Assembly: GCA_963782015.1 (NCBI GenBank)
Contig: CAWAHY010000004.1
Location: 1,044,633 to 1,108,632 of the forward strand
Source: an uncultured Chloroflexia bacterium
GTDB lineage: Bacteria > Chloroflexota > Limnocylindria > QHBO01
Reading direction: 5' to 3'
Length of the DNA: 64,000 bases
The notes below the pieces were generated by a model. That model saw only the letters and a list, made by a program, of their open reading frames with translations. It did not search any database and was not told the DNA's origin. Of this stretch, positions 49,693 to 64,000 are shown one piece after another (the stretch's first letter is position 1; the number at the start of each line of letters is the position of its first letter). A program made the position numbers and the translations under genes.

Positions 49693-49844
49693 GCGTACGC
49701 CCAGCGTGCACAGACACCAGGTTGGTCGCCGGACGTTGCCCTGGACCGCCCCACCTTGCCCGCCATGCACGCTGGGCGTGCACCTGCGCCTCCGAGCCGG
49801 GTTCGCGGATCGCTTCTTCGCGGATGCGTACGCTGGGCGTACGC
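49693..49844. repeat. palindromic repeats (motif family 2) upstream of typA
   Basis: GCGTACGC-CCA-GCGTGCAC at 49693-49711, ATGCACGC-TGG-GCGTGCAC at 49765-49783, GCGTACGC-TGG-GCGTACGC at 49826-49844. Also GGTTGG-CGG-CCAACC at 49671-49685 and the direct repeat TTCGCGGAT at 49801-49809 and 49816-49824. Confidence 0.5.
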
Positions 49845-49895
49845 GATCGGTCGCTCCAGGGGTCCACGCCCGGCTGTGCGACAATCAGGGCTCCC

Positions 49896-51827
49896 ATGAC
49901 GACTCCCGCCTCTCTCGCCACGCCCGCCGCGCCCTCCGCGGACGCCGTCATGCGCCCGGATCTGCGCAACCTGGCGATCGTCGCGCACGTGGACCACGGC
50001 AAGACGACGCTGGTCGACGCGCTGCTGCGCCAGACGGGCGCCTTCCGCGCCAACCAGGCGGTGGTGGATCGGGTCCTCGACTCCGGGGACCTGGAGCGCG
50101 AGAAGGGGATCACCATCCTCGCCAAGCAGACCACCATCGAGCACGGCGGGATCCATCTGAACATCGTGGATACCCCCGGCCACGCCGACTTCGGCGGCGA
50201 GGTGGAGCGCAGCCTGCTCATGGTCGACGCGGTCCTGCTGCTCGTGGATGCCGCGGAGGGGCCGCTCCCGCAGACCCGCTACGTCCTCTCCAAGGCGATG
50301 GCGCGGCACCTGCCGGTGATCGTCTGCATCAACAAGATCGACCGCTCCGACGCCCGCCCGGCGGAGGTGCTCGACGCGATCTACGAGCTGTTCATCGACC
50401 TCGGCGCGACCGACGCCCAGATCGACTTCCCGGTGGTCTACACCAACGCCAAGCTCGGCACGGCGACGCGCGACCTCGCCACCCCCGGGACCGACCTGCT
50501 GCCGCTGCTCGACCTGCTGGTGGCGGTGACGCCCCCGCCCTCCTACGTCCCCGATACCCCCCTCCAGCTGCTCGTCACCAACCTGTCGGCGAACGACTAC
50601 GTGGGGCGGATGGCGGTCGGGCGCATCTGGAGCGGGACGGTCAAGCCGGGCCAGCGCGTGACGATCGTGCGCGAGGAGCCGGAGGCGGCCGATGGCTCGG
50701 TCGAGCCGGGCCGCACGGTGACACTGACCGGCACGGTGACGAGCCTGACCACGGCCCGCGGCATCGAGCGGGTCGACATGGCGGAGGCCGGGCCGGGCGA
50801 CATCGTCGCGCTCGCCGGGATCCCCGAGGTGACGATCGGCGACACGATCACCGATCCCGCCGACCCGCGGCCGCTGCCCCGCCTCGACGTGGACGCGCCG
50901 ACGCTGCGCATGACCCTGGGCGTGAATACGTCGCCGCTCTCCGGCAAGGACGGCCGCTACGTGACGAGCCGCCAGATCAAGGCGCGCCTCGACCGCGAGG
51001 TGCTCGGCAACGTCTCGATCGAGGTCTACCCGACCGATACCGGCGACACCTTCGAGATCCGCGGCCGCGGCGAGCTCCAGCTCGCGGTCCTGGTGGAGCA
51101 GATGCGACGCGAGGGGTTCGAGCTGCAGGTGAGCCGGCCCGAGGTGATCCTGCGCACCGTGGACGGCCAGACCCAGGAGCCGTACGAGCGCATCACGGTC
51201 GACATCCCGCCCGACTTCATCGGTGAGGTGCAGTCGGCGCTGGCGGGGCGCAAGGCGAAGCTCGAGCAGATGTCGACCGACAGCGACGGGCGGGTGCGGC
51301 TCGAGTTCGTGCTGCCGGTGCGCGGCCTGATCGGGTACCGCGGCCAGCTCCTGACCGAGACGCGCGGGACGGCGCTCCTGCACCAGATCGGCGAGGGCTT
51401 CGGACCGTGGGCCGGCGACGTGACGCATCGGACGGCCGGAGTGCTGGTGAGCGATCGGGCGGGCATCTCGAACTCGTACGCGCTCTTCGCGCTCCAGGAG
51501 CGGAGCGAGCTGTTCATCGGTACCGGGGTGGAGGTCTACGAGGGGATGGTGGTCGGCGAGAACAGCCGCCCCGGCGACATGGACGTCAACCCGACCAAGG
51601 AGAAGAAGCTGACCAACATGCGCACCCACGCGCACGACGAGGCGCTGCGGCTCACCCCGCCCCGCCCCATCACGCTCGAGTCGGCGATCGAGTTCATCGC
51701 GGCCGATGAGCTGGTCGAAGTCACCCCCGGCGCCATCCGCCTGCGCAAGCGGCTCCTCGCCGAGCACGACCGTCGGCGGGAGGCGGGGCGCGAGCACGAG
51801 CGCCGAGTGGAGGCCGCGCGGGCCTGA
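49896..51827 (+). CDS. typA: translational GTPase TypA/BipA
   Basis: [38 protein letters not shown], and EF-G-like domains through the C-terminus. The start may instead be ATG 49950 ([11 protein letters not shown]). Confidence 0.95.
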
Positions 51828-52112: not shown

Positions 52113-54411
52113 CTAGTTGCTCTGCACCCAGTGCCCGTGCGGGCGCGGGACGTACCAGTGCGGCGGATCGTGCGGCCACTGCTTGGGGCTCTTGGTCACG
52201 ATCTTGATCTCGTACGGGGCGTAGTTCTGCTCGCCCTGCAGGGCGTCGAAGGTCACGATCAGGACCGCCTGGTCACAGTTCGCGACGGCGTCGCGAACCT
52301 CGATCGGGCGGCTCATCTCGGACCTCCGCGTCGTGAAGATGTGGAAGACCCGGTAGCTGACCTTCCCCTTCCAGTCCTTGTGACTGGTCACCAGGTCGAC
52401 CGTGAAGTTCAGGTCGATCGGCTGGTAGAAGGTTTCGTGCTTGAACACCGAAGCATCGGTGCCGTCGCTGACGTGAACGCCGTCGACCTGCACGTTGTCG
52501 ATGTACCAGTTCGGGTTGTCCAGGTCACCGATGTTGCCGTTGAAACCCCAGTCGGTCAGCAGCCGGAAGCCGATCAGGATCGACTGCCCTGCGTAGGCCG
52601 ACAGGTTGAAGGTTTCGTGGTCCCAGCCGATGGCGCCGGGGCCACCGCCGGAGACGCCGGTGAAGCCCGGCAGGTTGTCAGCTTCGTCTTGGGGTAGCCA
52701 ACGTCGGCACGATGTCACTGCGGGTGTCCGCGTTGGCGAGGCTGGTCCAGTTCAGGCCGTCGTCGGTCGAGACCTGCACCACGCCGAAGTCCCACTGCTC
52801 CTCGAGGTCGTAGAGGGTGTCGAAGTCGAGGCTCCCGCCACCGGTGGTGGCGAAGATCGCGAACCGATCCTTCTCGTCACCGCCCCCGGACCAGAGGGAC
52901 TTGCCCTCGATGCCCAGCGGGTCGTCGACCACGGTCCACTCCGTGTCGAGGGTCAGCATGTCGAGCCCGTCGAAGACGAGCTTCTTGATCTTGTTCGGGT
53001 CCTTGAGGAGCAGGTAGTCGCTGCCGAACGGCGGTGCCCCCGGCGTGTCGAAGGCGTCGCCGTTGATGGTCCCGTCGGCATTCTTGAGGACGACCGGCGA
53101 CGCGATGTCCGGGATGTTCCAGATGCCCTTCGGCTTCCCGGGCTTGTCGCTCAGGACGAGCCGGGCGATGGCGAAGTTGTGATAGACGTCCGCGAAGGTC
53201 GTCTTGGCCTTGATCGTCTTGAGGGCGTCGTTCACCCCGGCCATGCCCTGGAACTGCGAGTGGAAGAGCGCCTGCATCGCCCCCTGCCCGTAATGGGTGT
53301 AGAGGTAATGCATGAACAGGAAGGCCTCGCCGTAGTCGGTGATGATCTCCACGTCCCCCTGGTCACCCCAGATCACGAGCGAGTTCTCACCGTTCTCCTG
53401 GGCCTCGTCCACGTACGTCTGCGGGACGCCGTAGCCGACCAGCCACTCGGTCCACATCGAGAGGCCCTCGTTGATCCAGCTCTCCTCGGCGGCATCCTCG
53501 TCGCCGTGCAGCAGGTGCTGGTACTCGTGGGCAAAGGTGGATTCGTAGAGGAAGTCGACATCGTTGTCAGGGCCATCGGCGGGGCGCCATGGAGCGCCGG
53601 GACCGCCGACACGGTTCGCCCAGTCGAGCGCGTCGATGGTGATCACGTTGCGGTCGATGTAGAAGTTGACGTCCGGGCTGAAGAACCCGGCCACGTAGAG
53701 CGGATAGGTCGGGTCGTAGAAGTTGTCGTCCTCGATGTTCTCGATCTTGGCGATGACCCGATCCTTGCCGTCGAAGGACATGAACGAGTCGGGGTCGAGG
53801 CCAAAGAGGTCATCGAGGACCGCGTTGGAGCCGTTGCGCAGCTCCGGCGTCCGCCAGTAGTCGGACTCCTTGGGGAAGATGTTGTTGTCGAACTCATCGA
53901 CCAGGTAGGCGATCTGCGCGTCGGTGACCTCAGGGGTGGGTCGCGGGTCAGACGGGTCGTCGGCATAGAAGGACATGTCGAGCTGGACCCAGACCTCGAT
54001 GTTCGTACCGATCGCCCTGACCTCGTAGATCTCGGGGTACAAGCCAAAGACCGTATCGACAGTGACCGCGTACACGAAATCGCCGACGTTGTAGACGAGT
54101 GGCTCGACGGGCGCCGTCGCGGCGCTGCCGTCAGCTGGAGCCGCGTTCGGGTCCGCCGGGGCGGCATTCGGGTCCGCCGGGGCGGCGTTCGGGTCCGCCG
54201 GCGCGGGGTTGTTGGCAGCGGTGAGGGCCGGGCCTGCCCCGCGGGTCACGTTCAGTGGATCGATGACATTGTCGGTGACCCACGCGGGGGCCGCGGTTGG
54301 CCGCAGCTTCTGCGGTCCTGAGCTCGAGAGTGCGCCGGCCGGCGCGAGCGCCGTGATGAGCAGCGCGATGGTGGCGGTGAGCGCAAGGATGCGCCGGCGG
54401 GGATGGGACAC
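52113..54411 (-). pseudogene. secreted M6-family (immune inhibitor A-like) metalloprotease, one frame break
   Basis: GTG 54411 preceded by GGAGGAGGAG. Signal peptide MSHPRRRILALTATIALLITALAPAGA. Zinc motif FAHEYQHLLH (HExxH) plus NEGLS. Frame shifts at GGGG 52691-52694. It continues QDEADNLPGFTGVSGGGPGAIGWDHETFNLSAYAGQSILIGFRLLTDWG...YIDNVQVDG to stop 52113. Confidence 0.8.
54146..54205 (-). repeat. 21-bp tandem repeat (about 2.9 copies) inside the protease gene
   Basis: ttcgggtccgccggggcggc[a/g] repeated, encoding PADPNAA x3 (NPAPADPNAAPADPNAAPADPNAAPADGS) just after the signal peptide/propeptide region. Confidence 0.8.
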
Positions 54412-54658
54412 GACTCCTCCTCCAGTGTGCTCGGTGTGGAGCGGCGGCTCGCAGCGATCGTGTGTCGGGAGGCTGGCCCTGCGTCCACGGTCGGAAGGAC
54501 CGGTGCGGCGCGCGCGTGACGACGCGGCAACCCCCTGTTGGCCGCCACTCTAGCGGCGCCCCGGTCGGGCTGTCCAACGTCCGCGTGCTTTCGGGCAGAG
54601 GAAGCGGTGCAGCGGAGCACCGTTCGCCAAATCCCGGCTCCCGTGGCACCCTTTGGAC

Positions 54659-54685
54659 GTGAACCGATCCCGACCGATCACCGTC
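54659..54685 (+). promoter_or_regulatory. ECF-type promoter candidate (GTGAAC-N17-CGTC) directly upstream of the lipoprotein gene
   Basis: GTGAAC at 54659-54664 and CGTC at 54682-54685. The expected start site would fall at or next to ATG 54694, giving a leaderless or near-leaderless transcript. Confidence 0.3.
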
Positions 54686-54693
54686 CTGTGGGC

Positions 54694-55212
54694 ATGACGC
54701 AGTGGCTTCCCGTGCACCGGATGGTGGTCATCGGTGCTGCCCTGGCGCTCACTACGGGGTGCGCACTGCTGCCGCTCGGTCGCTACGCTGGATCGGTGGA
54801 CCCATCCGCCAGCGCGAGCGCGTCAGCGAATGCCGGGAGCGCGGATGGTGACTCCGGCGACCCCGACGACGGTGAGCCGGCAGCCTCGCACCCGCAGGCC
54901 ATTCCCGACCCGCTGCACCCGATCGCCCATGGCGCGGGCGAGTCGCTCGATGTCGGCAACGCCACCATCTCGTTCATCGGCCTCGAGCAGGTCGGGGACC
55001 AGCTCCGCGCCCGATTCAGCATCGAGTCAGGGTCCCTCGCCTCGGCCCGGCTCGTGTCGCCTTCGGGCGAGGTCGTGGACCTCCACGCCTCAGGCGGCGA
55101 GCTGCGGAGCGACCCATTCGGCTCGGCCGCCGATCCTCCGTCGAAGCTCTCGCACCTGACGCTGGTGGTGGGGCAGCGCCTCTACCTCTTCGAGGCCGGC
55201 CCCGTCAGCTAG
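54694..55212 (+). CDS. hypothetical lipoprotein
   Basis: ATG 54694. MTQWLPVHRMVVIGAALALTTGCAL (lipobox), an Ala/Ser/Asp-rich linker, then a small beta-rich domain. Confidence 0.55.
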   Translation: MTQWLPVHRMVVIGAALALTTGCALLPLGRYAGSVDPSASASASANAGSADGDSGDPDDGEPAASHPQAIPDPLHPIAHGAGESLDVGNATISFIGLEQVGDQLRARFSIESGSLASARLVSPSGEVVDLHASGGELRSDPFGSAADPPSKLSHLTLVVGQRLYLFEAGPVS

Positions 55213-55232
55213 GGCTCCATCGGCCCGTTCGA

Positions 55233-55294
55233 AGATTGAGTCGCCCGCGGTAGCGCCATGCCCATACCGTATGAGTGCGCCGATCTGAATCGGC
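55233..55294 (+). promoter_or_regulatory. conserved upstream boxes plus 5'-UTR hairpin of ECF sigma gene 1
   Basis: AGATTGA (55233-55239), 21 nt, CCCATACCGT (55261-55270), then the palindrome GCCGAT-CTGA-ATCGGC (55279-55294). The same layout occurs before sigma genes 2 and 3. Confidence 0.4.
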
Positions 55295-55315
55295 TCACCG
55301 CACAGCGGACGGGGC

Positions 55316-55864
55316 ATGGATACACAACTCGTGGTACGAGCGCAGCGCGGCGACGAAGGGGCCTTTACCAGCCTCGCCGTGGCCGTGGGCGATCGGCTCC
55401 ATGCGGTGGCGTTCAGGATCCTGCGCGACACCGACCTTGCCGAGGACGCGACGCAGCAGGCGCTGCTCAACGTCTGGCGAGACCTGCCGCAGCTCCGCGA
55501 CCCGGCGCGCTTTGACGCCTGGTCGTATCGGCTCCTCGTGCGCGCCTGCTACGCCGAGGGTCGCCGAACCCGTCGCTGGAGCCCGAACATGCGCCTCCTC
55601 CCGGCTGATGAGCCGATGGCGGCGGATGGCACGAGCCTGGTCCTTGATCGCGACCAGCTCGAGCGCGGCTTCCGGCGCCTCTCCATCGAACATCGTGCGG
55701 TGGTGGTCCTGCATCACTACCTCGACCTGCCGCTCTCGGAGGTCGCCGAGACGCTCGGCGTGCCACAGGGAACGGTCCGATCTCGACTTCATTACGCGAT
55801 GCGGGGGTTGCGCGCGGCGCTCGATGCCGACACGCGCCCGACCAGGCGGGAGGCTGCTCGATGA
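55316..55864 (+). CDS. ECF (group IV) RNA polymerase sigma factor, copy 1
   Basis: 182 aa. Region 2 is LAEDATQQALLNVWRDLPQLRDPARFDAWSYRLLVRAC. Region 4 is HRAVVVLHHYLDLPLSEVAETLGVPQGTVRSRLHYAMRGLR. Confidence 0.9.
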   Translation: MDTQLVVRAQRGDEGAFTSLAVAVGDRLHAVAFRILRDTDLAEDATQQALLNVWRDLPQLRDPARFDAWSYRLLVRACYAEGRRTRRWSPNMRLLPADEPMAADGTSLVLDRDQLERGFRRLSIEHRAVVVLHHYLDLPLSEVAETLGVPQGTVRSRLHYAMRGLRAALDADTRPTRREAAR

Positions 55865-56733
55865 GCACCGATCGCGACGTCAACCGCATCGTTCGGTCGT
55901 GGCTCGACGAGGGCGTCACGGCGCTCCCGGACCGCGTCCTGGATGCCGTGCTCGACCAGCTCCCCGCGACCCCACAGCGCCGAGCCGGCTGGCTGGCGCG
56001 GAGGTTCCCGATCATGAACACGAACATCGTGCGCTTCGGGCTGATCGCCGCCGTTCTGGTGGTGGCGGTGATTGTCGGCGCAAGCCTGCTCCGGCAGCCA
56101 TCGGTTGGCCCGTCGCCTTCGGAGGAACCCTCAGTGGCGCCTCCTGCGTTCCTGTACAACGTCCCCAGTGGCGACCTGGCGGCCGGCAGCTATGAACTGA
56201 ACCTGGCCATCCCAGTGCGGCTGACCTTCGACGTGCCGGTGGGCTTCAGCCACGACAAGGGCGGGATTGAGGCGATCCACGGCACGACCGCCGCAAACGA
56301 AGGCCTGGAATTCCAATTCGCCTCGAATGTCTATCCCGACCCTTGCCATCGTGCAACCGGGGCGGCCGATCCAGCCGTCGGTCCCAGCGTCGACGACCTG
56401 GTCACGGCCATGACCAGCATGGTCGGCTTCCAGGCTGGCCCCATCACCGATCTGACCATCGCTGGTTTTCCGGCGAAAGCATTCGATCTCACGAACGAGA
56501 TCGACGCCGCGACCTGCGATGAGCAGGACGTCCGCACCTTCGTGTGGGAGGGCGACCACCCCCCGAACGGAAGCAGCGTCGGCTCAGGTGAGCGCCAGCG
56601 GATCTATGTCGTGGACATCCAAGGCAGGCGCTTGATGATCATGACCTACTACTTCTCAAGCGGGGATACGGCCGCCGAGGCCGCTGCCGCGGCGGAGCTG
56701 AAGACGATCGTGGAGTCGATCGCGATCCGTTAG
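55861..56733 (+). CDS. membrane-anchored partner of ECF sigma 1 (putative non-canonical anti-sigma with extracytoplasmic Cys-pair domain)
   Basis: ATGA overlap with the sigma gene. MSTDRDVNRIVRSWLDEGVTALPDRVLDAVLDQLPATPQRRAGW, TM helix FGLIAAVLVVAVIVGASLL, a P/S linker, and an outer domain of about 200 aa. No HxxxCxxC. Confidence 0.6.
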   Translation: MSTDRDVNRIVRSWLDEGVTALPDRVLDAVLDQLPATPQRRAGWLARRFPIMNTNIVRFGLIAAVLVVAVIVGASLLRQPSVGPSPSEEPSVAPPAFLYNVPSGDLAAGSYELNLAIPVRLTFDVPVGFSHDKGGIEAIHGTTAANEGLEFQFASNVYPDPCHRATGAADPAVGPSVDDLVTAMTSMVGFQAGPITDLTIAGFPAKAFDLTNEIDAATCDEQDVRTFVWEGDHPPNGSSVGSGERQRIYVVDIQGRRLMIMTYYFSSGDTAAEAAAAAELKTIVESIAIR

Positions 56734-56744
56734 TCGCCGCGCGA

Positions 56745-56777
56745 GATGAGGCCGTGGCCCCGGGCCGCGGCCTCATC
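56745..56777 (+). terminator. strong GC hairpin after module 1
   Basis: GATGAGGCCG-TGGCCCCGGGCCG-CGGCCTCATC with further inner pairing, 12 nt after stop 56733. Followed by gtcTTcc (weak T-tract). Confidence 0.5.
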
Positions 56778-56790
56778 GTCTTCCCTGGAA

Positions 56791-56854
56791 AGATTGAAGG
56801 TCATTCCCGTCCTTGCCCCCATACCGTGTGTAATGCATCGGTCTGAACCGATGC
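56791..56854 (+). promoter_or_regulatory. conserved upstream boxes plus 5'-UTR hairpin of ECF sigma gene 2
   Basis: AGATTGA (56791-56797), 20 nt, CCCATACCGT (56818-56827), then GCATCGGT-CTGA-ACCGATGC (56835-56854). Confidence 0.4.
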
Positions 56855-56870
56855 CTTGACGGAAGAGGGC

Positions 56871-57419
56871 ATGGACACCGATCTCGTGAGACTCGCGCAA
56901 CTCGGCGACAAAGGGGCTTTCACGAGCCTTGCCGCCGCCCGGGCCGATCGGTTCCTCGCCGCGTCGCACAGGATCCTGCGCGACCTCAACCTCGCCGAGG
57001 ATGCGACGCAGCAGGCGCTGCTCAACATCTGGCGGGACCTTCCGCAGCTTCGCGACCCGGCGCGCTTCGATGCCTGGTCGTACCGCCTCCTCGTGCGCGC
57101 CTGTTACGCGGAGGCCAGCCAGACCAGGCGTTGGGCGCCGAACATCCACCTGCTGCCGGCGGATGAGCCGATGGCGGTGGACGAGCTGAGCGCGGTCGTG
57201 GATCGCGACCAGCTCGAGCGCGCCTTTCGACGCCTCTCCCTCGATCACCGAACGGTGGTGGTCCTGCACCACTACCTCGACCTGCCGCTCGACCAGGTTG
57301 CCGAGGTGCTCGGCATCCCGGTCGGGACGGCCGCCTCCAGAATTCACTACGCGGTGCGCGGACTGCGCGCGGCGCTCGACGCCGACGCACGCCCGACACG
57401 GCGAGAGGGTGCCCGATGA
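56871..57419 (+). CDS. ECF RNA polymerase sigma factor, copy 2
   Basis: ATG 56871 chosen by alignment with copy 1 (MDTDLVRLAQLGD vs MDTQLVVRAQRGD); the listed ORF starts at TTG 56856. Region 2 and 4 motifs are almost identical to copy 1. Confidence 0.9.
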   Translation: MDTDLVRLAQLGDKGAFTSLAAARADRFLAASHRILRDLNLAEDATQQALLNIWRDLPQLRDPARFDAWSYRLLVRACYAEASQTRRWAPNIHLLPADEPMAVDELSAVVDRDQLERAFRRLSLDHRTVVVLHHYLDLPLDQVAEVLGIPVGTAASRIHYAVRGLRAALDADARPTRREGAR

Positions 57420-58309
57420 GCACTGATCTCGACGTCACCCGCGTCCTTCGGTCGTGGCTGCACGAGGATGCCCACGAGGACGCCGACCGTGTCCTCGACC
57501 TCGTCCTCGATCAGATCGACACGACTCCACAGCGCCGAGCCTCCTGGCCGGCGTGGAGGTCTCCTGTCATGAGCAACACCCTCCGCATCACCCTCGCGGC
57601 CGCGGCCGTGGTGATCGTTGCGTTCATCGGCTTTCAGGTATTCGGCAACGGAAGCGTCGGCGGGCCGGCCACGTCGCCGTCGCAGTCCGAGGCAGCGAGC
57701 ATCGCGCCCACCCCGACTGCGACCCCGGTGCCAGCCGGGTTTCTTGCCGCCGGTGCTCAGACGATTGGCAGGCATTCGATGGTTCTGTCGGGAGTCAGGG
57801 TCTCGATCGAGATTCCAACGGCTGGCTGGACCAGCAACGGCGAATGGGGCCTGGACTTGGGCACCTGGCCCAGCGCTGGCTATGCCGGTTTCATCTTCTG
57901 GCCGTTGTCGGCTCCTGACCACGTCTTCAGCGATCCATGCAACGAAACGCCGGCAAGTCCTCCGCCCGGAGGGTCGGCCGCCGAGCTGGCGACGGCGGTG
58001 GCAACGATTCCCGGCGTCACCCTCGTCAGCGGTCCCTCGGAGGTCCGCGTGGGCGGGCACCCGGCGCAGCACGTGGTGTTGACCTTTACGAATGACATCG
58101 GTTGCGCCCCAGAGAACTTCTACCTGTGGGAGGACGCGGACAACCCGGGCGCGGCCCGCTACGCCAGCGAGGTGGGCGAAACCCTCTCCGTCTGGATCAT
58201 CGACGTGAACGGCACAATCGTGTGGATCGACACCGAGACCTTCCTGAACTCCGGGCTCGAGGCCGAGCAGAAGGTTCAGAACCTCATCGACTCGATCCAG
58301 TTTGAGTGA
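57416..58309 (+). CDS. membrane-anchored partner of ECF sigma 2 (paralogue of 55861-56733)
   Basis: ATGA overlap. MSTDLDVTRVLRSWLHEDAHEDADRVLDLVLDQIDTTPQRRASW, a TM helix, a linker, and an outer domain with FSDPCNE...IGCAPENFYLW...WIIDVNGTIVWIDT...LIDSIQFE. Confidence 0.6.
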   Translation: MSTDLDVTRVLRSWLHEDAHEDADRVLDLVLDQIDTTPQRRASWPAWRSPVMSNTLRITLAAAAVVIVAFIGFQVFGNGSVGGPATSPSQSEAASIAPTPTATPVPAGFLAAGAQTIGRHSMVLSGVRVSIEIPTAGWTSNGEWGLDLGTWPSAGYAGFIFWPLSAPDHVFSDPCNETPASPPPGGSAAELATAVATIPGVTLVSGPSEVRVGGHPAQHVVLTFTNDIGCAPENFYLWEDADNPGAARYASEVGETLSVWIIDVNGTIVWIDTETFLNSGLEAEQKVQNLIDSIQFE

Positions 58310-58329
58310 GGCGCGAGGACTCGACAACC

Positions 58330-59790
58330 ATGACCAGGAGCATCCAAAGATGGTCCCCGTGGTGGCTCGCCGTCGCATGCGTCGCCCTGCTCAGCGCATG
58401 CGCCGCAAGCTCCACCCCCACGGCCAGTCTCGACGCCTCGTCGCAACCGGCGATGCGCAGCTTCACCGCGTGGCTCGACGCCTTCAACAGCGGGGATCGT
58501 CAGCGGTACAAGACGTTCCTCAGGGACCACTATCCAGCTCTGCTCGGGCAGCTGGACGGCGAGATGGCGTTCCGCGATATCACCGGCGGATTCGAACTGC
58601 GGGCGGTGGAGCACGCGTCCGCCTCCAGTGCCAGCGGCCTGGTGCAGGAGCGTGATTCCGATCAGTTCGCACACTTCGAACTGCTCGTCGGCCCCGAAGC
58701 AAAGCACGAGATCATTCGGCTCGGTGTGAGGGCGATCCCTCGCCCCGCGGAGTTCCCTATCGCGCGGCTCACCGAGGACGAAGCCATCGAGGGTGTCGCG
58801 TCTCTGCTGCGGGAGCGCGCCACCCGGGACCGGTTCAGCGGCGCAGCCCTGGTGGCGAGGGACGGCGAGGTCATCTTCAGTGCGGCCTATGGGGAAGCCG
58901 ATCGAGCGAACGGAGTGCCGAACTCCCTCGAGACGAGCTTCCGCCTCGGGTCGATGAACAAGATGTTCACGGCGGTGGCGATCCTTCAGCTGGTCGAGAC
59001 CGGGCTCATCGACCTGACGGCACCCGTCGGCCGATACATCACCGATTACCCCAACCGCGACGTGGCCAGCAAGGTGACGATCCACCAGCTGCTGACCCAC
59101 ACCGGAGGCACCGGCGACATCTTCGGCCCGCAGTTCGACGCGCACCGCCTGGAGCTCCGGACCCTCGACGACTACGTGGAGCTCTACGGCCAGCGCGGCC
59201 CGGAGTTCGAGCCGGGCACCTCCTGGGCCTACAGCAACTATGGGATGGTCCTGCTGGGCGTCGTCATCGAGAGAGTCACGGGCGAGACGTACTACGACTA
59301 CGTCGACGAGCACATCTACCGCCCCGCCGGCATGACCTCGAGCGGGTCGCTGTCGGAGGCCCGCGTGGTCCCGGGCCGCTCGATCGGGTACACGAGAGAG
59401 GCAAGCGACGCTGAGTGGGCCCCGAATACGGACACGCTCCCGTATCGAGGAACATCGGCCGGCGGCGGCTACTCGACGGTCCAGGACCTCTACCGATTCG
59501 CCCAGGCGCTGCTGGCCAACCGGTTGCTCAGCCGCGCCTCCACGCAGCTGCTCTTCAGCGGCAAGGTGGACTCGGGTCCCGGTGGACGCTACGCGTACGG
59601 GTTCTTCGACGCTCGAGACGCGGATGGGAACGGCTGGGTTGGCCACGGGGGTGGCGCACCCGGCATGAACGGCGACCTGAGGATCTACCCGAAAACCGGC
59701 TACGTGGTGGTGGTGCTGGCGAACATGGACCCGCCGGCGGCTGGAAGGATCTCCGAGTATCTCGACCCGCGGTTGCCAGCGGAGCCGTGA
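58330..59790 (+). CDS. serine hydrolase lipoprotein (beta-lactamase / class C esterase family)
   Basis: ATG 58330. Lipobox LLSACA. SMNK (SxxK), YSN (YxN), HGGG (KTG-equivalent). Confidence 0.8.
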   Translation: MTRSIQRWSPWWLAVACVALLSACAASSTPTASLDASSQPAMRSFTAWLDAFNSGDRQRYKTFLRDHYPALLGQLDGEMAFRDITGGFELRAVEHASASSASGLVQERDSDQFAHFELLVGPEAKHEIIRLGVRAIPRPAEFPIARLTEDEAIEGVASLLRERATRDRFSGAALVARDGEVIFSAAYGEADRANGVPNSLETSFRLGSMNKMFTAVAILQLVETGLIDLTAPVGRYITDYPNRDVASKVTIHQLLTHTGGTGDIFGPQFDAHRLELRTLDDYVELYGQRGPEFEPGTSWAYSNYGMVLLGVVIERVTGETYYDYVDEHIYRPAGMTSSGSLSEARVVPGRSIGYTREASDAEWAPNTDTLPYRGTSAGGGYSTVQDLYRFAQALLANRLLSRASTQLLFSGKVDSGPGGRYAYGFFDARDADGNGWVGHGGGAPGMNGDLRIYPKTGYVVVVLANMDPPAAGRISEYLDPRLPAEP

Positions 59791-61358
59791 TGCGCCGATG
59801 GAGGCGGTCCGCGCGGACGCGAGCCGGTTCCCTCGCGCTCTTGCTGGCGTTGAGCGCCTGCACCGCGACCCCGCCACCGAGTGCGAGTCTGCAGATGTCC
59901 GCTGGCCCGAGCACCAGTATCGAAGCCACGCCCAGTCTGCCGATCGCCTACCCATTCCCCCTCGAAGCCACGATCCCGGAGCTCCAGGCCGCGATGGAGA
60001 GCGGCGAGCTCACGGCGGTTGAGCTGGTCGACTTCTACCTGGCCCGGATCGCCGCGTACGACGACCTCGGCCCCGCGCTCAACGCGTTCATCCTCGTGAA
60101 CCCGGCGGCCCGCGATGAGGCAGCTGCGCTCGACGCGGAGCGCGCGACCTCGGGTCCGCGCGGGCCGCTCCATGGCATCCCGATCGTGATCAAGGACAAC
60201 ATCGGCACCGCGGACATGCCGACCACCGCCGGATCGCGCGCGCTCGAGGGATTCATCCCGTCGGACGACGCGTTCCAGGTGCGGAAGCTGCGCGAGGCGG
60301 GGGCGATCATCATCGGCAAGACGAACCTGTGCGAGTTCGCCCTCTGCTGGGAGACGACCTCGTCCCTCGGCGGGCAGACCCGCAACCCGTACGACCCGAC
60401 CCGCGATCCCGGTGGCTCGAGTGGCGGCACGGCGGTGGCCGTGGCGGCGAACTTTGGGGTTGCCGGTCTCGGGACCGATACCTGTGGCTCCATCCGACTT
60501 CCATCGGGGCTCAATGACCTCTACGGGCTGCGGCCCACCAACGGGCTCTCGTCGCGCGCCGGCGTCATCCCCTTCTCGACCTCGACCGATACGGTCGGGC
60601 CGATGGCCCGCAGCGTCATCGACCTTGCGATCGTGCTGGATGCCACCGCCGGCGAGGATCCGGCGGACCCGACCACCGTCCCGCTCACGACCTCGTTCGC
60701 CGACGCCGTCGACCCGAATGGACTCGCTGGCCGGAGGATCGGCCTGCTCACCTTCACCCTGGACCCCGAGATGATGCAGCTCGAGGGAGGCGCCATCGAC
60801 GCGATGGTCGCGAACGGGGTCGAGGTCACCCCGGTGAACCTCCCGGCCGGCGTGCGGATGGATCCCCTCTACGGCGAGCTCCGCACCGCCCTGGACGCAT
60901 ACCTCGCCGCCCAGCCGACGGCGCCCGTCAGGTCACTCGCCGAGATCGCGAACTCGAACGTCGCCGATCCGTGGGTGGCGGGGTTCCTGCGATCCCTCGC
61001 CTCGGCGCCCAACCTCGATTCGCAGGCGTACCGCGATGCAGTCGACGGGCGAGCCACCTTCCGTGACAAGGTGGTCGCCCTCATGGACGAGCACGACCTC
61101 GACGCGATTGCCTACCCGGAGTCTCGGAGGCCGGCCGCCCTGATCGGCGCCGGCCAGGAGGCCTTCAACTGCGACACGGCCGCGTACGGTGGCCTGCCCG
61201 CCATCGTCATCCCGGCCGGGCTGACTGCCGATGGCCTGCCGGTTGGGCTGGAGCTGATGGGCCGGCCATTTGACGAGGCGACCCTGATCGCCATCGCCGC
61301 GGGCTTCGAGGCGCACACGGGTCCCCGGGTCCTCCCTCCCTCGACGCCGCCGCTTTAG
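59790..61358 (+). CDS. amidase-signature family lipoprotein
   Basis: ATG 59790 shares one nt with the upstream TGA (GTG 59787 also possible). Lipobox LLALSAC. KDNIGTADMPTTAGS and GGSSGGTAVAVAANFGVAGLGTDTCGSIRLPS (amidase signature, Ser-cisSer-Lys). Confidence 0.85.
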   Translation: MRRWRRSARTRAGSLALLLALSACTATPPPSASLQMSAGPSTSIEATPSLPIAYPFPLEATIPELQAAMESGELTAVELVDFYLARIAAYDDLGPALNAFILVNPAARDEAAALDAERATSGPRGPLHGIPIVIKDNIGTADMPTTAGSRALEGFIPSDDAFQVRKLREAGAIIIGKTNLCEFALCWETTSSLGGQTRNPYDPTRDPGGSSGGTAVAVAANFGVAGLGTDTCGSIRLPSGLNDLYGLRPTNGLSSRAGVIPFSTSTDTVGPMARSVIDLAIVLDATAGEDPADPTTVPLTTSFADAVDPNGLAGRRIGLLTFTLDPEMMQLEGGAIDAMVANGVEVTPVNLPAGVRMDPLYGELRTALDAYLAAQPTAPVRSLAEIANSNVADPWVAGFLRSLASAPNLDSQAYRDAVDGRATFRDKVVALMDEHDLDAIAYPESRRPAALIGAGQEAFNCDTAAYGGLPAIVIPAGLTADGLPVGLELMGRPFDEATLIAIAAGFEAHTGPRVLPPSTPPL

Positions 61359-61383
61359 GAGTCCTGTCGCGCCGCCAATTCCC

Positions 61384-61442
61384 TATTTGAACGCTGGCGC
61401 CAACCGCCGACTCATACTCGCTGATCGCCCGGACCTCGGGCG
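61384..61442 (+). promoter_or_regulatory. diverged version of the upstream boxes plus hairpin before ECF sigma gene 3
   Basis: TATTTGA (61384-61390), 20 nt, CTCATACTCG (61411-61420), then CGCCCG-GACCT-CGGGCG (61426-61442). Confidence 0.3.
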
Positions 61443-61457
61443 CATCTGAGGTGAGGG

Positions 61458-62003
61458 ATGGAGCGGAGGCTCGTCGAGCTGGCGATGCGCGGCGACGAAG
61501 AGGCGTTCGACTCACTTGTCGGACGCATCGGTGACGGCCTCCACTCAGTGGCGCGCAGGATCCTGCGCGACACGACCCTGGCGCAGGACGCGACCCAGGA
61601 AGCATTGCTCGATGTGTGGCGCAACCTGCCGCGACTGAGGGATCCCGACCGCTTCGAGGCCTGGGCCTATCGCCTCCTCGTGAACGCATGTCATGCCGAA
61701 GCGCGCCGCGAACGACGTCATCGCGGCAACCTGACGCTGCTGCCTCATGACGAGCCGATGGTCACCGATTCGGCATCGCGGATCGCCATCCAGGACCAGC
61801 TCGACCGCGCGTTCCGCCAGCTAAGCCTCGAGCATCGGACCGTGGTCGTGCTGGTGCACTACCTCGGCCAGACGCCGTCGGAGGCGGCCGAAACGATGGG
61901 GACGCCCGTCGGCACGGCACGTTCACGGCTCCACTACGCACTCGAACACCTGCGCGCGTCCATCGAGGCCGATGCGCGGGTCACCAAGCGAGGGACGGCA
62001 TGA
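61458..62003 (+). CDS. ECF RNA polymerase sigma factor, copy 3
   Basis: 181 aa. LAQDATQEALLDVWRNLPRLRDPDRFEAWAYRLLVNAC and HRTVVVLVHYLGQTPSEAAETMGTPVGTARSRLHYALEHLR. Confidence 0.9.
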   Translation: MERRLVELAMRGDEEAFDSLVGRIGDGLHSVARRILRDTTLAQDATQEALLDVWRNLPRLRDPDRFEAWAYRLLVNACHAEARRERRHRGNLTLLPHDEPMVTDSASRIAIQDQLDRAFRQLSLEHRTVVVLVHYLGQTPSEAAETMGTPVGTARSRLHYALEHLRASIEADARVTKRGTA

Positions 62004-62890
62004 CACGTGACGACGAATTCATCGGCCAGCTCGAGGGCTACCTCGACGAGTATGAGGGCCTGACCCCCCTGCCCGATGCGGTCCGCCAAGCCGTCCGAGC
62101 CGAGCTCCCAACGACGGGCCAGGGCGGTCCTCGCTGGGGACCGATGCGGTACCTCTCCATGAGCAACAACGTGAAGCTCGGCCTCGCGATTGCTGCCGTC
62201 TCCGGGCTGGCACTCATTGGGGTCGGGCTCCTGCGTCCCGGTCTGAACATCGGCAACCCGACTCCGACGGTCACGCCGAGACCATCGGCTCTGCCGTCCG
62301 TGGGTCCGCTGCCAGCCGGAACCTACCTCATGTCAGACCCGAGATTCACCCAGGTGCCCTACCGGTTCACCGTTCCCGACGGGTGGGCGATCACCGCCGA
62401 CGGACTCGTCATCAAGCACCAGGACGAGAACAGCGAGGTGGGATTCGCCTCCTGGGAGGTCACCCACCTCTTCGGCAACGCCTGCCACTGGTCTGGGACG
62501 CTCGTGGCTGTCACCGGCACCAGCCTCGACAGCTTCGCGGGATCGCTGGTTGCCCAGGAGGAACAGCAGGCATCTGGCCCCATCGACACACAGCTCGCAG
62601 GCTACCCAGCCAAGCGCATCGACCTCTTCGAACCGGCCGGTTTCGACTTTTCGGCGTGTGACGGTGATGAAGAGCTCGTCCGGCTATGGGCCGATGTGGG
62701 AGGCGATCTGAACGGCGGCTGGCGAGCGCGCCCCGGCCAGATCGACTCGGCGTACATCGTCGACGTCGACGGCAAGCGGATCGTCATCGACACGTGGCAG
62801 TTCCCGCGGACCTCGGCGCAGGACATCACGGAGATCGAAGGGATCATCGCCTCCATCCGTTTCGTACCCGAGGAAGGGGTTCCGCAGTGA
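62000..62890 (+). CDS. membrane-anchored partner of ECF sigma 3 (diverged paralogue)
   Basis: ATGA overlap. MTRDDEFIGQLEGYLDEYEGLTPLPDAVRQAVRAELPTT, TM helix LGLAIAAVSGLALIGVGLL, and an outer domain with FGNACHW...LAGYPAKRIDL...SACDGDEE...YIVDVDGKRIVIDT...IIASIRF. Confidence 0.6.
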   Translation: MTRDDEFIGQLEGYLDEYEGLTPLPDAVRQAVRAELPTTGQGGPRWGPMRYLSMSNNVKLGLAIAAVSGLALIGVGLLRPGLNIGNPTPTVTPRPSALPSVGPLPAGTYLMSDPRFTQVPYRFTVPDGWAITADGLVIKHQDENSEVGFASWEVTHLFGNACHWSGTLVAVTGTSLDSFAGSLVAQEEQQASGPIDTQLAGYPAKRIDLFEPAGFDFSACDGDEELVRLWADVGGDLNGGWRARPGQIDSAYIVDVDGKRIVIDTWQFPRTSAQDITEIEGIIASIRFVPEEGVPQ

Positions 62891-62910
62891 AGACCAGCAC
62901 GACAGGCCGA

Positions 62911-63681
62911 ATGACGATGCGATGGCTCGCGATCCTCTTCGCCGCATTCGCGGCTGCGCTCCTCGCCGTCGGCTGCTCGCGAGTAGCCGACGAACCGTCG
63001 GCGAGTCAAGACCCGGCTTCACTCCCGAACTCAGTCACGCCGACCCCGACGGCTCCCTCCTCGACCCCGGCCGGGTCAGTTCCAGCCGGCGTCAGGTCCG
63101 TCACGGGGCTGGTCCTGGGGACCGGTGACTACCCCACCTACGAGGTGGTCGTGCCCGACACCTGGGGCGCCGCCGGCGGGCACTTTGTCGTGAAGTACAA
63201 CTTCGCCCACCCGCCGGTGCTTGGGTTGAGCGTTTGGGACGTTGGCCAGGTGTTCCGCGACCCATGCCACTGGGTCGGCCAGGAATACGATCCGGGACCG
63301 ACCGTCGAGGATCTGGTTGCTGCCCTCGTCGCCCAGCCGATGCGGAATGCCAGCCAGCCGACCGCCGTCACCGTCGCCGGGTACTCGGGCCAGTACCTGG
63401 AGTGGTCGGTCCCGGCTGACCTGAAGTCAAGCACCTACACGGACTTCGACGCGTGCGACATCGATCCCTCCGACGTCATTCATCGCAACTTCAACAGCTG
63501 GCTGGGCAACGGAATGGGGAACCGGTACGAGCAGGTGCCAGGTCAGGTCGACCGGCTCTGGGTCCTTGACGTGGATGGGCAGCGACTCGTCATCGACGCA
63601 ACCTACTCGGCAGACACCGTCCAGGCTGACCGCGACGAGTTGAGCAGCGTCGTCGCCTCGCTCCGGTTCGCAGCACCCTAA
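62911..63681 (+). CDS. lipoprotein carrying the same outer domain without a sigma-linked N-terminus
   Basis: ATG 62911 (GTG 62887 overlapping the upstream stop is an alternative). Lipobox LLAVGCS. FRDPCHW...VAGYSGQYLEW...DACDIDP...WVLDVDGQRLVIDA...VVASLRF. Confidence 0.65.
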   Translation: MTMRWLAILFAAFAAALLAVGCSRVADEPSASQDPASLPNSVTPTPTAPSSTPAGSVPAGVRSVTGLVLGTGDYPTYEVVVPDTWGAAGGHFVVKYNFAHPPVLGLSVWDVGQVFRDPCHWVGQEYDPGPTVEDLVAALVAQPMRNASQPTAVTVAGYSGQYLEWSVPADLKSSTYTDFDACDIDPSDVIHRNFNSWLGNGMGNRYEQVPGQVDRLWVLDVDGQRLVIDATYSADTVQADRDELSSVVASLRFAAP

Positions 63682-63691
63682 GCCTGGCTGC

Positions 63692-64000
63692 TCAGTCCTC
63701 GACGGCGATCCGGATCCGCTTGTTGATCCGGCCCTTGGATTCGTAGCCGGTCACCCGCACCCGCCCGATCTCGGCGGTGTGGGCCACGTGCGTGCCGCCA
63801 TCGGCCTGGAGGTCGAGGCCCACGATCTCGATGGTCCGCACCTCGCTGATCCCCTCCGGCAGCAGGTTGATCTTGGTGCGGATCAGGTCGGGGATGGCGA
63901 ACGCCTCGTCGCGCGGGTGGACGGCGACGCGGATCTCGCGGTCCGCGGCGATCTCCACGTTCACGCGCCGCTCGATCTCGGCCACCAGCTCGCCGGCCAT
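63692..64000 (-). CDS. alanyl-tRNA editing (AlaX-like) / tRNA-synthetase second additional domain protein, C-terminal part only
   Basis: The 5' end lies beyond the window. LQADGGTHVAHTAEIGRVRVTGYESKGRINKRIRI matches the tRNA_SAD GGTHV motif region. Confidence 0.65.
   Translation of the reverse strand: MAGELVAEIERRVNVEIAADREIRVAVHPRDEAFAIPDLIRTKINLLPEGISEVRTIEIVGLDLQADGGTHVAHTAEIGRVRVTGYESKGRINKRIRIAVED

Follow-up and report, generated by a model that had tools for sequence, protein, structure and literature searches.

In the pairs RseA-sigmaE, RsiW-sigmaW and RslA-SigL, an extracytoplasmic function (ECF) sigma factor is co-transcribed with a single-pass membrane partner encoded at the +1 position, probably under autoregulation, and is released from this class I anti-sigma factor by regulated proteolysis. 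A second design is represented by NepR and by CnrY, which acts on CnrH in Cupriavidus metallidurans; in both, the cytoplasmic anti-sigma segment is short and made of two helices. CnrY is membrane-anchored, its gene lies beside that of its ECF sigma factor, and, being small, it depends on CnrX, a separate sensor in the periplasm. Clostridium thermocellum carries several paralogous SigI/RsgI pairs, in which conserved anti-sigma heads are combined with differing extracellular sensor domains; SigI is not an ECF sigma factor of the type discussed here, the RsgI sensors are carbohydrate-binding modules and SEAL domains, and the anti-sigma domain is also different. Class I anti-sigma domains average 101 ± 33 residues; class II domains consist of two helices, the first of which takes the role of class I helix 1 towards sigma-4, and the second that of class I helix 4 towards sigma-2, and anti-sigma domains of less than 50 aa have been set aside as possible class II members (PMC7406223). 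Putative anti-sigma factors have been found in 114 of 157 ECF groups, usually at +1, most of them matching no Pfam anti-sigma domain and most being group-specific; Chloroflexi are absent from the main text of that re-classification paper (PMC7826278). Here we analyze a locus at positions 55316-63681 of a 64-kb window (the whole stretch of DNA under analysis, from an uncultured Chloroflexia bacterium of the Limnocylindria; all coordinates are positions in this window). It holds three tandem modules of ECF sigma factor and membrane partner, followed by a fourth, lipoprotein copy of the partner's outer domain. We consider it likely that the modules are autoregulated pairs of ECF sigma and anti-sigma factor, in which the anti-sigma head is minimal and class II-like and the sensor domains diverge fast.

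The open reading frames (ORFs) of all three modules lie on the + strand, and every ORF named in the first-pass annotation, a reading of the bare sequence, was found where it had been placed (Table 1; sigma factors S1 to S3, partners A1 to A3). The sigma genes had been described there as paralogues, the first two identical at roughly three quarters of positions and the third more diverged. Alignment agrees with this, giving 77% identity between S1 and S2 and 62% between S1 and S3; the three proteins align gap-free except for a single terminal position, and the 41-residue block quoted earlier is indeed common to S1 and S2. In all three modules the sigma gene runs into the partner gene through an ATGA stop/start overlap. 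The partner had been drawn as a short cytoplasmic part (the head), one transmembrane (TM) helix, a Pro/Ser/Thr linker and an outer domain of about 200 aa, a layout reproduced by our AlphaFold2 model, in which the outer domain measures 190 residues. The head motif MSTD.DV.R..RSWL....DRVLD.VLDQ...TPQRR..W is present in A1 and A2, and is diverged in A3 (MTRDDEFIGQLEGYLDEYEG..PLPDAVRQAVRAELP). Translation also confirmed that the HxxxCxxC zinc anti-sigma (ZAS) motif is absent from all three cytoplasmic segments, because these contain no cysteine. The fourth outer-domain copy has a lipobox, LAVGC, at the end of its signal peptide in place of the head, as first proposed: by eye, its sequence (MTMRWLAILFAAFAAALLAVGC followed by S) fits [LVI][ASTVI][GAS]C, and the protein scores 120.8 bits against a hidden Markov model (HMM) of the outer domain, with no match to the head HMM. 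The four outer-domain proteins share 28-35% pairwise identity. HMMs built for sigma, head and outer domain detected no further copy of any of them elsewhere in the 64-kb window.

The three sigma factors, 181-182 aa long and comprising regions sigma-2 and sigma-4 only, are group IV sigma-70 factors of the ECF type, the type that had been assigned to them. All match PF04542 together with PF08281/PF04545, and they score 62, 53 and 76 bits, respectively, against TIGR02937, the NCBIfam model of the ECF superfamily (cut-off 42.9). None reached a named subfamily, the best scores, 95-115 bits, lying below cut-offs of 141.55 and 208 (for example, the SigE-family model TIGR02983 and PRK12518), and the closest solved sigma structure is that of Mycobacterium tuberculosis SigL (E 5e-16).

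The pairing of sigma factor and partner recurs in a survey of related genomes, for which the window was combined with 83 fetched related loci (L001-L083): a head-bearing partner follows in a 4-nt overlap after 105 of 107 full-length family sigma genes, a figure inflated by the fact that the loci were gathered via the partner, with the extra modules in their flanks not so selected. Stand-alone outer-domain lipoproteins similar to that of the window occur in three of these loci (L019, L032 and L082). The partner family is absent from Pfam and NCBIfam. A word-indexed search gave at least 1,753 partner homologues, all unnamed, and an exhaustive search of representatives with a head-only profile (E ≤ 1e-3) gave at least 2,739 clusters at 50% identity; the indexed homologue search with the same kind of profile returned just fragments of 31-88 aa, which are uninformative on architecture. 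Among species-representative genomes, the family is almost limited to metagenome-assembled genomes (MAGs) of Chloroflexota labelled Limnocylindria, Limnocylindrales or "uncultured Chloroflexia". Of the 150 best matches listed, nearly all have the head at residues 1-50, the examined exceptions being frameshift artefacts, and 74 of the 82 head-bearing representatives of at least 250 aa also have the outer domain; the others are partly frameshifted gene calls and partly proteins whose outer domain is of another kind, such as SnoaL-like. Indeed, the same head and TM helix were seen on other outer domains (one of them SnoaL/NTF2-like), still overlapping a family sigma gene by 4 nt (L070 6519-7127; L003 4027-5211; L067 3824-4903; L076 4992-6269; P0289, P0334, P0303 and P0345).

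Arrays of two or three modules also occur in L003, L004, L005, L014 and L056, and the S1/S2 type and the S3 type of sigma factor each recur in other MAGs; the modules of the window are thus old paralogues and no local accident. It is hardly credible that the tandem repetition is without functional meaning, reflecting recent duplicates or an assembly artefact, even though many database entries of the family are frameshifted fragments and the assemblies do carry indel errors: the three modules are all intact and clearly diverged, with synonymous divergence (dS) among them of 0.5 to above 1.2, each of the three types, together with a promoter variant of its own, is found in other MAGs, and comparable arrays exist in the five loci just named. 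The frameshifts themselves are widespread. P0121-P0220, P0260, P0329, P0331, P0355, L071 9403-10845 and L080 4434-5300 are truncated or chimeric through single-base frameshifts, which are probably due to indel errors in the assembly of MAGs from long reads, and family counts based on gene calls therefore need caution. Six of these (L071 9403-10845, L080 4434-5300, P0260, P0329, P0331 and P0355) were considered as natural sigma-partner fusions and rejected, since they are frameshift artefacts with sigma-4 out of frame.

The partner had been suspected to lie outside the described anti-sigma families, and Pfam, NCBIfam and the anti-sigma chains of the PDB indeed give no qualifying match. There is no Pfam match to the partners at all, NCBIfam anti-sigma models score 27 bits at best, far from the cut-off of 100, and neither the profile of the head (at E ≤ 10) nor that of the whole protein matches any solved anti-sigma chain. 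Two NCBIfam models are weakly matched, each by 28 of 60 family members and with scores spanning 16-27 bits, namely NF052375 "anti-sigma factor" (best 27.2 bits, cut-off 100) and the CU044_5270 family model NF038083 (best 20.1 bits, cut-off 100). In A2 and P0098, the matched stretch is limited to helix 2, the TM helix and the juxtamembrane RR..W segment between them; for NF052375 it falls on model positions 49-103, and the first ~48 positions of that model are without counterpart in the partners. The AlphaFold2 model of A1, built on a 60-sequence alignment (mean pLDDT, the predicted local distance difference test, 84.6), has two short helices at residues 3-16 and 24-33 and the TM helix at residues 54-77. 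The head itself comprises 48 residues, and ~50 residues precede the TM helix, in keeping with the earlier view that it is too short for a class I domain.

These findings bear on whether the partner could simply be an ordinary, strongly diverged class I anti-sigma factor, short in appearance only and working by the RseA/RsiW mechanism, which we judge unlikely. The helix-1 motif RSWLDEG does resemble the helix-1 motif of class I domains, for example LMDGE of RseA; the contact logic of these domains has been described (PMC7406223). Moreover, the weak NF052375 match includes helix 2 and the TM helix, and two family members weakly match the RseA model PRK10863. However, the ~50 residues before the TM helix contrast with the 101 ± 33 of class I domains, and the four-helix, ~100-aa class I anti-sigma domain (ASDI) was not found, with two helices predicted instead of four and no match to an ASDI-type model. 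No member reaches the threshold of any class I model in Pfam or NCBIfam, and the zinc motif is missing. Compared with RseA, RsiW and RslA, the head is about half as long. Its predicted two-helix segment of less than 50 aa, modelled at moderate confidence, corresponds instead to what has been described for class II. The architecture of the head fits that description, and the head may bind sigma in a class II-like manner, although a profile search of the PDB and Pfam revealed no sequence relationship to CnrY or NepR. The partner further differs from these two proteins in having its own folded outer domain of 190 residues.

Conservation and co-divergence speak for the head as the putative sigma-binding part. 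Within the partner, conservation is highest in the head, with mean pairwise identities of 68% for the head, 42% for the TM helix and 36% for the outer domain. Inside the main clade of 73 pairs, the mean differences are 21% for sigma factors, 29% for heads and 70% for outer domains. The pairwise distance matrices of sigma and head are correlated with r = 0.91 (92 pairs) and r = 0.79 (main clade), and those of sigma and outer domain with r = 0.14 (all pairs) and r = 0.24 (main clade), values that partly reflect shared descent and near-saturated outer-domain distances. Between modules 1 and 2, the synonymous divergence is ~0.5 in sigma and head and ~1.2 in the outer domain, the latter estimate being unreliable at 35% identity. 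This contrast hints at mosaic evolution, either by swapping of outer domains onto a conserved chassis of sigma and head or by conversion of the chassis.

The same data speak to the possibility that the partner is not an inhibitor but a sigma-controlled envelope protein or a FecR-like activator, with the head serving in membrane targeting or another cytoplasmic contact. The function of the partner is indeed deduced from context alone, its outer domain also exists as a free lipoprotein, and in relatives the promoter-like motif described below precedes genes of secreted proteins and lipoproteins, so envelope proteins are plausible targets. We nevertheless find this reading improbable, because conservation peaks in the head and the head tracks the divergence of sigma, because the strict 4-nt translational coupling implies matched protein amounts, and because the head keeps adjoining the sigma gene even where the outer domain has been replaced.

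The outer domain is modelled at pLDDT >90 over most of residues 100-290, with two 10-residue blocks at 75-78, and is joined to the TM helix by a disordered Pro/Ser/Thr linker. The first-pass annotation had called it an uncharacterised sensor domain. Structurally, it is not an orphan: Foldseek searches of the PDB identify an alpha-beta-alpha sandwich of the PsbP/Mog1/LpqN type, with a best E of 1.2e-4 at probability 1.0 and template modelling (TM) scores of 0.50-0.59 on the target. Over the PsbP/Mog1-like matches to cyanobacterial PsbP, Jonesia 3lyd, M. tuberculosis LpqN, Mtc28 and Apa, Salmonella DcrB, and Tsi3, E ranges from 1e-4 to 1e-2, probability from 0.98 to 1.0 and the TM score on the target from 0.43 to 0.59; plant PsbP is matched as well. 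The likeness is at the fold level only, with 8-14% sequence identity and no Pfam or sequence-family match. Several PsbP/Mog1-like proteins are envelope lipoproteins, as is the stand-alone copy of the window. A cysteine pair, DPC162 and C219 in A1 numbering, is conserved also in this lipoprotein and therefore suggests an extracytoplasmic disulfide between the two residues; in comparison with the other PsbP/Mog1-like proteins, the DPC...C pair is specific to the partner family. We know of no PsbP/Mog1-like protein among those compared that is part of an anti-sigma factor.

Upstream of nearly every sigma gene of the family lies a two-box motif with the consensus AAGATTGA(G/A)TCGC-N15-GCCCATACCGTGTG, one box of the module motif being labelled CCCATACC. 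In the window, the regular expression TTGARB-N19-22-CATAC has three matches on both strands against 0.03 expected, and these sit 46-55 nt upstream of the three sigma start codons; a position-weight scan of the 64 kb found no additional site. S1 and S2 have a nearly identical motif, and a variant, TTGAACGCT...CTCATACTC, precedes all four S3-type sigma genes examined. In the related loci, 68 of 78 matches to the expression are immediately upstream of a family sigma gene, and most of the other ten precede genes of secreted proteins or lipoproteins. We interpret the motif as a putative autoregulated ECF promoter. Sites ahead of non-sigma genes, whose products are secreted proteins or lipoproteins, were seen at L056 2508-2539, L012 140-170, L042 1089-1120 and 577-607, L002 9849-9879, L030 3303-3334 and L070 2933-2963, and these genes are candidate regulon members in relatives.

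Between the -10-like box and the ribosome-binding site, the leader folds into a stem-loop. On per-sequence folding it was found in all 59 aligned leaders; it has 6-8 bp and a mean z of -2.1, and its 5' arm occurs in 53 different versions. The stems vary from locus to locus with pairing kept (GCGCCGG/CCGGCGC, GCATCGG/CCGATGC, CGTCCGG/CCGGACG and GTCACC/GGTGAC). Owing to two registers of the stems, RNAalifold gave no consensus structure for the leaders as aligned by MAFFT, and Rfam yielded nothing relevant in 54000-64000, the leader hairpins included. The hairpin may be a 5'-terminal stabilizer of the mRNA or a regulatory element; it also accompanies the L056 2508-2539 motif site.

Several points weigh against the interpretation as class II-like sigma/anti-sigma modules. 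Besides the selection of loci via the partner and the share of common descent in the distance correlations, both noted above, the helices of the head are modelled at a moderate pLDDT of 57-75, the head is without a significant match to any solved or curated anti-sigma domain in the PDB, Pfam or NCBIfam, and the two boxes of the motif are unlike the typical ECF boxes, GGAAC and CGT. A more far-reaching proposal, which we regard as possible but rather doubtful, is that the 48-residue head constitutes a distinct minimal anti-sigma domain of a very large Chloroflexota-specific family, in which a near-invariant chassis of sigma, head and promoter carries PsbP-like sensors that are swapped or rapidly diversifying and arrays act as multi-input devices. 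The head might then be a class I domain that has lost helices 2-3, or it might have originated independently. Multi-input arrays feeding overlapping promoters would fit the near-identical promoter motif of S1 and S2.

Returning to the modules as autoregulated ECF sigma/anti-sigma pairs, we propose the following mechanism. As the gene overlap shows, each sigma factor is made together with its partner by translational coupling. The two-helix head would clamp sigma, with helix 1 placed against sigma-4 and helix 2 against sigma-2, in the manner of class II (CnrY-type) domains and of class I helices 1 and 4, and would thereby keep it at the membrane. The PsbP/Mog1-like outer domain, presumably stabilized by its cysteine pair, would sense an extracytoplasmic cue, upon which the partner would be inactivated, most likely by proteolysis if the analogy with other single-pass anti-sigma factors holds. 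The freed sigma factor would transcribe its own operon from the two-box motif in positive autoregulation and, in relatives, may also act on the secreted-protein and lipoprotein genes that carry the same motif. Module 2 probably also drives the serine hydrolase and amidase genes downstream of it, and module 3 the free lipoprotein copy of the sensor. Sigma and head would form a conserved chassis on which sensor domains diverge or are exchanged much faster, so that arranging modules in tandem would offer several different inputs. A comparable arrangement of conserved heads and differing sensors is seen in the SigI/RsgI pairs, from which the ECF modules described here differ in being directly tandem.

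The two lipoprotein hydrolases that had been noted between modules 2 and 3 were identified by their Pfam matches, catalytic motifs and lipoboxes (Table 1). The true start of the serine hydrolase is probably at 58330, and the protein has an extra N-terminal region of ~160 residues ahead of its PF00144 domain. Its stop codon overlaps the amidase start (TGATG), and this coupling, together with the LSAC lipoboxes, suggests a paired envelope hydrolase unit. Because the hydrolase gene starts just 20 nt after A2, it probably shares a transcript with module 2 in this genome, as does the amidase gene. The GC-rich hairpin after A1 likely marks the end of the module 1 transcript; it was not picked by the consensus terminator scan, and scans for terminators and sigma-70 promoters were uninformative. 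As for the M6 protease placed upstream of the array, InhA-like/M6 models do match, albeit weakly. This gene appears to be split into two overlapping ORFs in different frames, with the HEYQH catalytic part in the 577-aa ORF and a MAM-like C-terminal part in the 201-aa ORF, and is either a frameshift pseudogene or the product of an assembly indel. The hydrolases, the protease and the lipoprotein upstream of the array were considered as parts of the system and rejected, because their association with the modules is not conserved: in the 83 other loci, the amidase is found near modules in 5, a PF00144 serine hydrolase in 10 (mostly on the opposite strand), and an M6-like protease and the upstream lipoprotein in none. 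They are local cargo or neighbours. On the other side, the array is bordered by an AlaX-like (tRNA_SAD) editing-domain gene, whose homologues adjoin modules in 13 other loci; this edge of the array is therefore syntenic among relatives. Further away, an ORF with GTP_EFTU-like motifs, assigned by eye, presumably encodes a translational GTPase of the TypA/BipA type.

Table 1. Features of the array and its surroundings in the 64-kb window.
Feature	Position	Strand	Description
Presumed TypA/BipA-type GTPase	49722-51827	+	
InhA-like/M6 protease, 201-aa ORF	52113-52718	-	
InhA-like/M6 protease, 577-aa ORF	52678-54411	-	
Upstream lipoprotein	54688-55212		
Module 1 promoter-like motif	55232-55273	+	AAGATTGAGTCGC-N15-GCCCATACCGTATG; top position weight matrix (PWM) match in window
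Module 1 5'-untranslated region (5'-UTR) stem-loop	55275-55298	+	
ECF sigma factor S1	55316-55864	+	182 aa; Pfam Sigma70_r2 + r4
Partner A1, putative anti-sigma	55861-56733	+	290 aa
GC-rich hairpin after A1	56745-56777	+	RNAfold -35 kcal/mol; no clean T-tract
Module 2 promoter-like motif	56790-56830	+	AAGATTGAAGGTC-N14-CCCCATACCGTGTG; regular expression, PWM
Module 2 5'-UTR stem-loop	56835-56854	+	GCATCGG-tctgaa-CCGATGC; leader folding
ECF sigma factor S2	56871-57419	+	182 aa
Partner A2, putative anti-sigma	57416-58309	+	297 aa
Lipoprotein serine hydrolase	58330-59790	+	PF00144; SMNK motif; lipobox LLSAC
Lipoprotein amidase	59790-61358	+	PF01425; GGSSGG; lipobox LSAC; start at 59790, not at a later codon
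Module 3 variant promoter-like motif	61383-61426	+	TTTGAACGCTGG...ACTCATACTCGC; regular expression; variant of S3-type sigmas
Module 3 5'-UTR stem-loop	61423-61446	+	leader folding
ECF sigma factor S3	61458-62003	+	181 aa
Partner A3, putative anti-sigma	62000-62890	+	296 aa; diverged head
Stand-alone outer-domain lipoprotein	62911-63681	+	256 aa; begins 20 nt after A3
AlaX-like (tRNA_SAD) gene	63692-64000	-	

No current idea is overturned by these modules, and their general design is ordinary, because group-specific, Pfam-negative membrane anti-sigma factors at +1 are common (PMC7826278). As far as the libraries and literature were searched, the partner family, its two-helix head and the use of a PsbP/Mog1-like domain as a sensor appear to be undescribed, and so do the marked contrast of a conserved chassis of sigma, head and promoter with hyper-divergent sensors and the family's expansion in an uncultured class. 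If our interpretation is true, the head would add a third example with many members to the minimal two-helix anti-sigma domains and, to the best of our knowledge, the outer domain would be the first link of a PsbP/Mog1-like domain to sigma-factor signalling. The modules are compact and seemingly modular, and their combination of a 180-aa sigma factor, a 50-aa inhibitor head and a defined promoter is the profile sought for ECF-based synthetic switches. Limnocylindria are abundant soil and freshwater bacteria without a cultured representative, and their environmental sensing is essentially obscure; one genomic study uses sigma-factor counts solely as a proxy for regulatory complexity (PMC13212565). 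With its thousands of sequence clusters, the partner family described here appears to be among the main expanded signalling devices of these bacteria.

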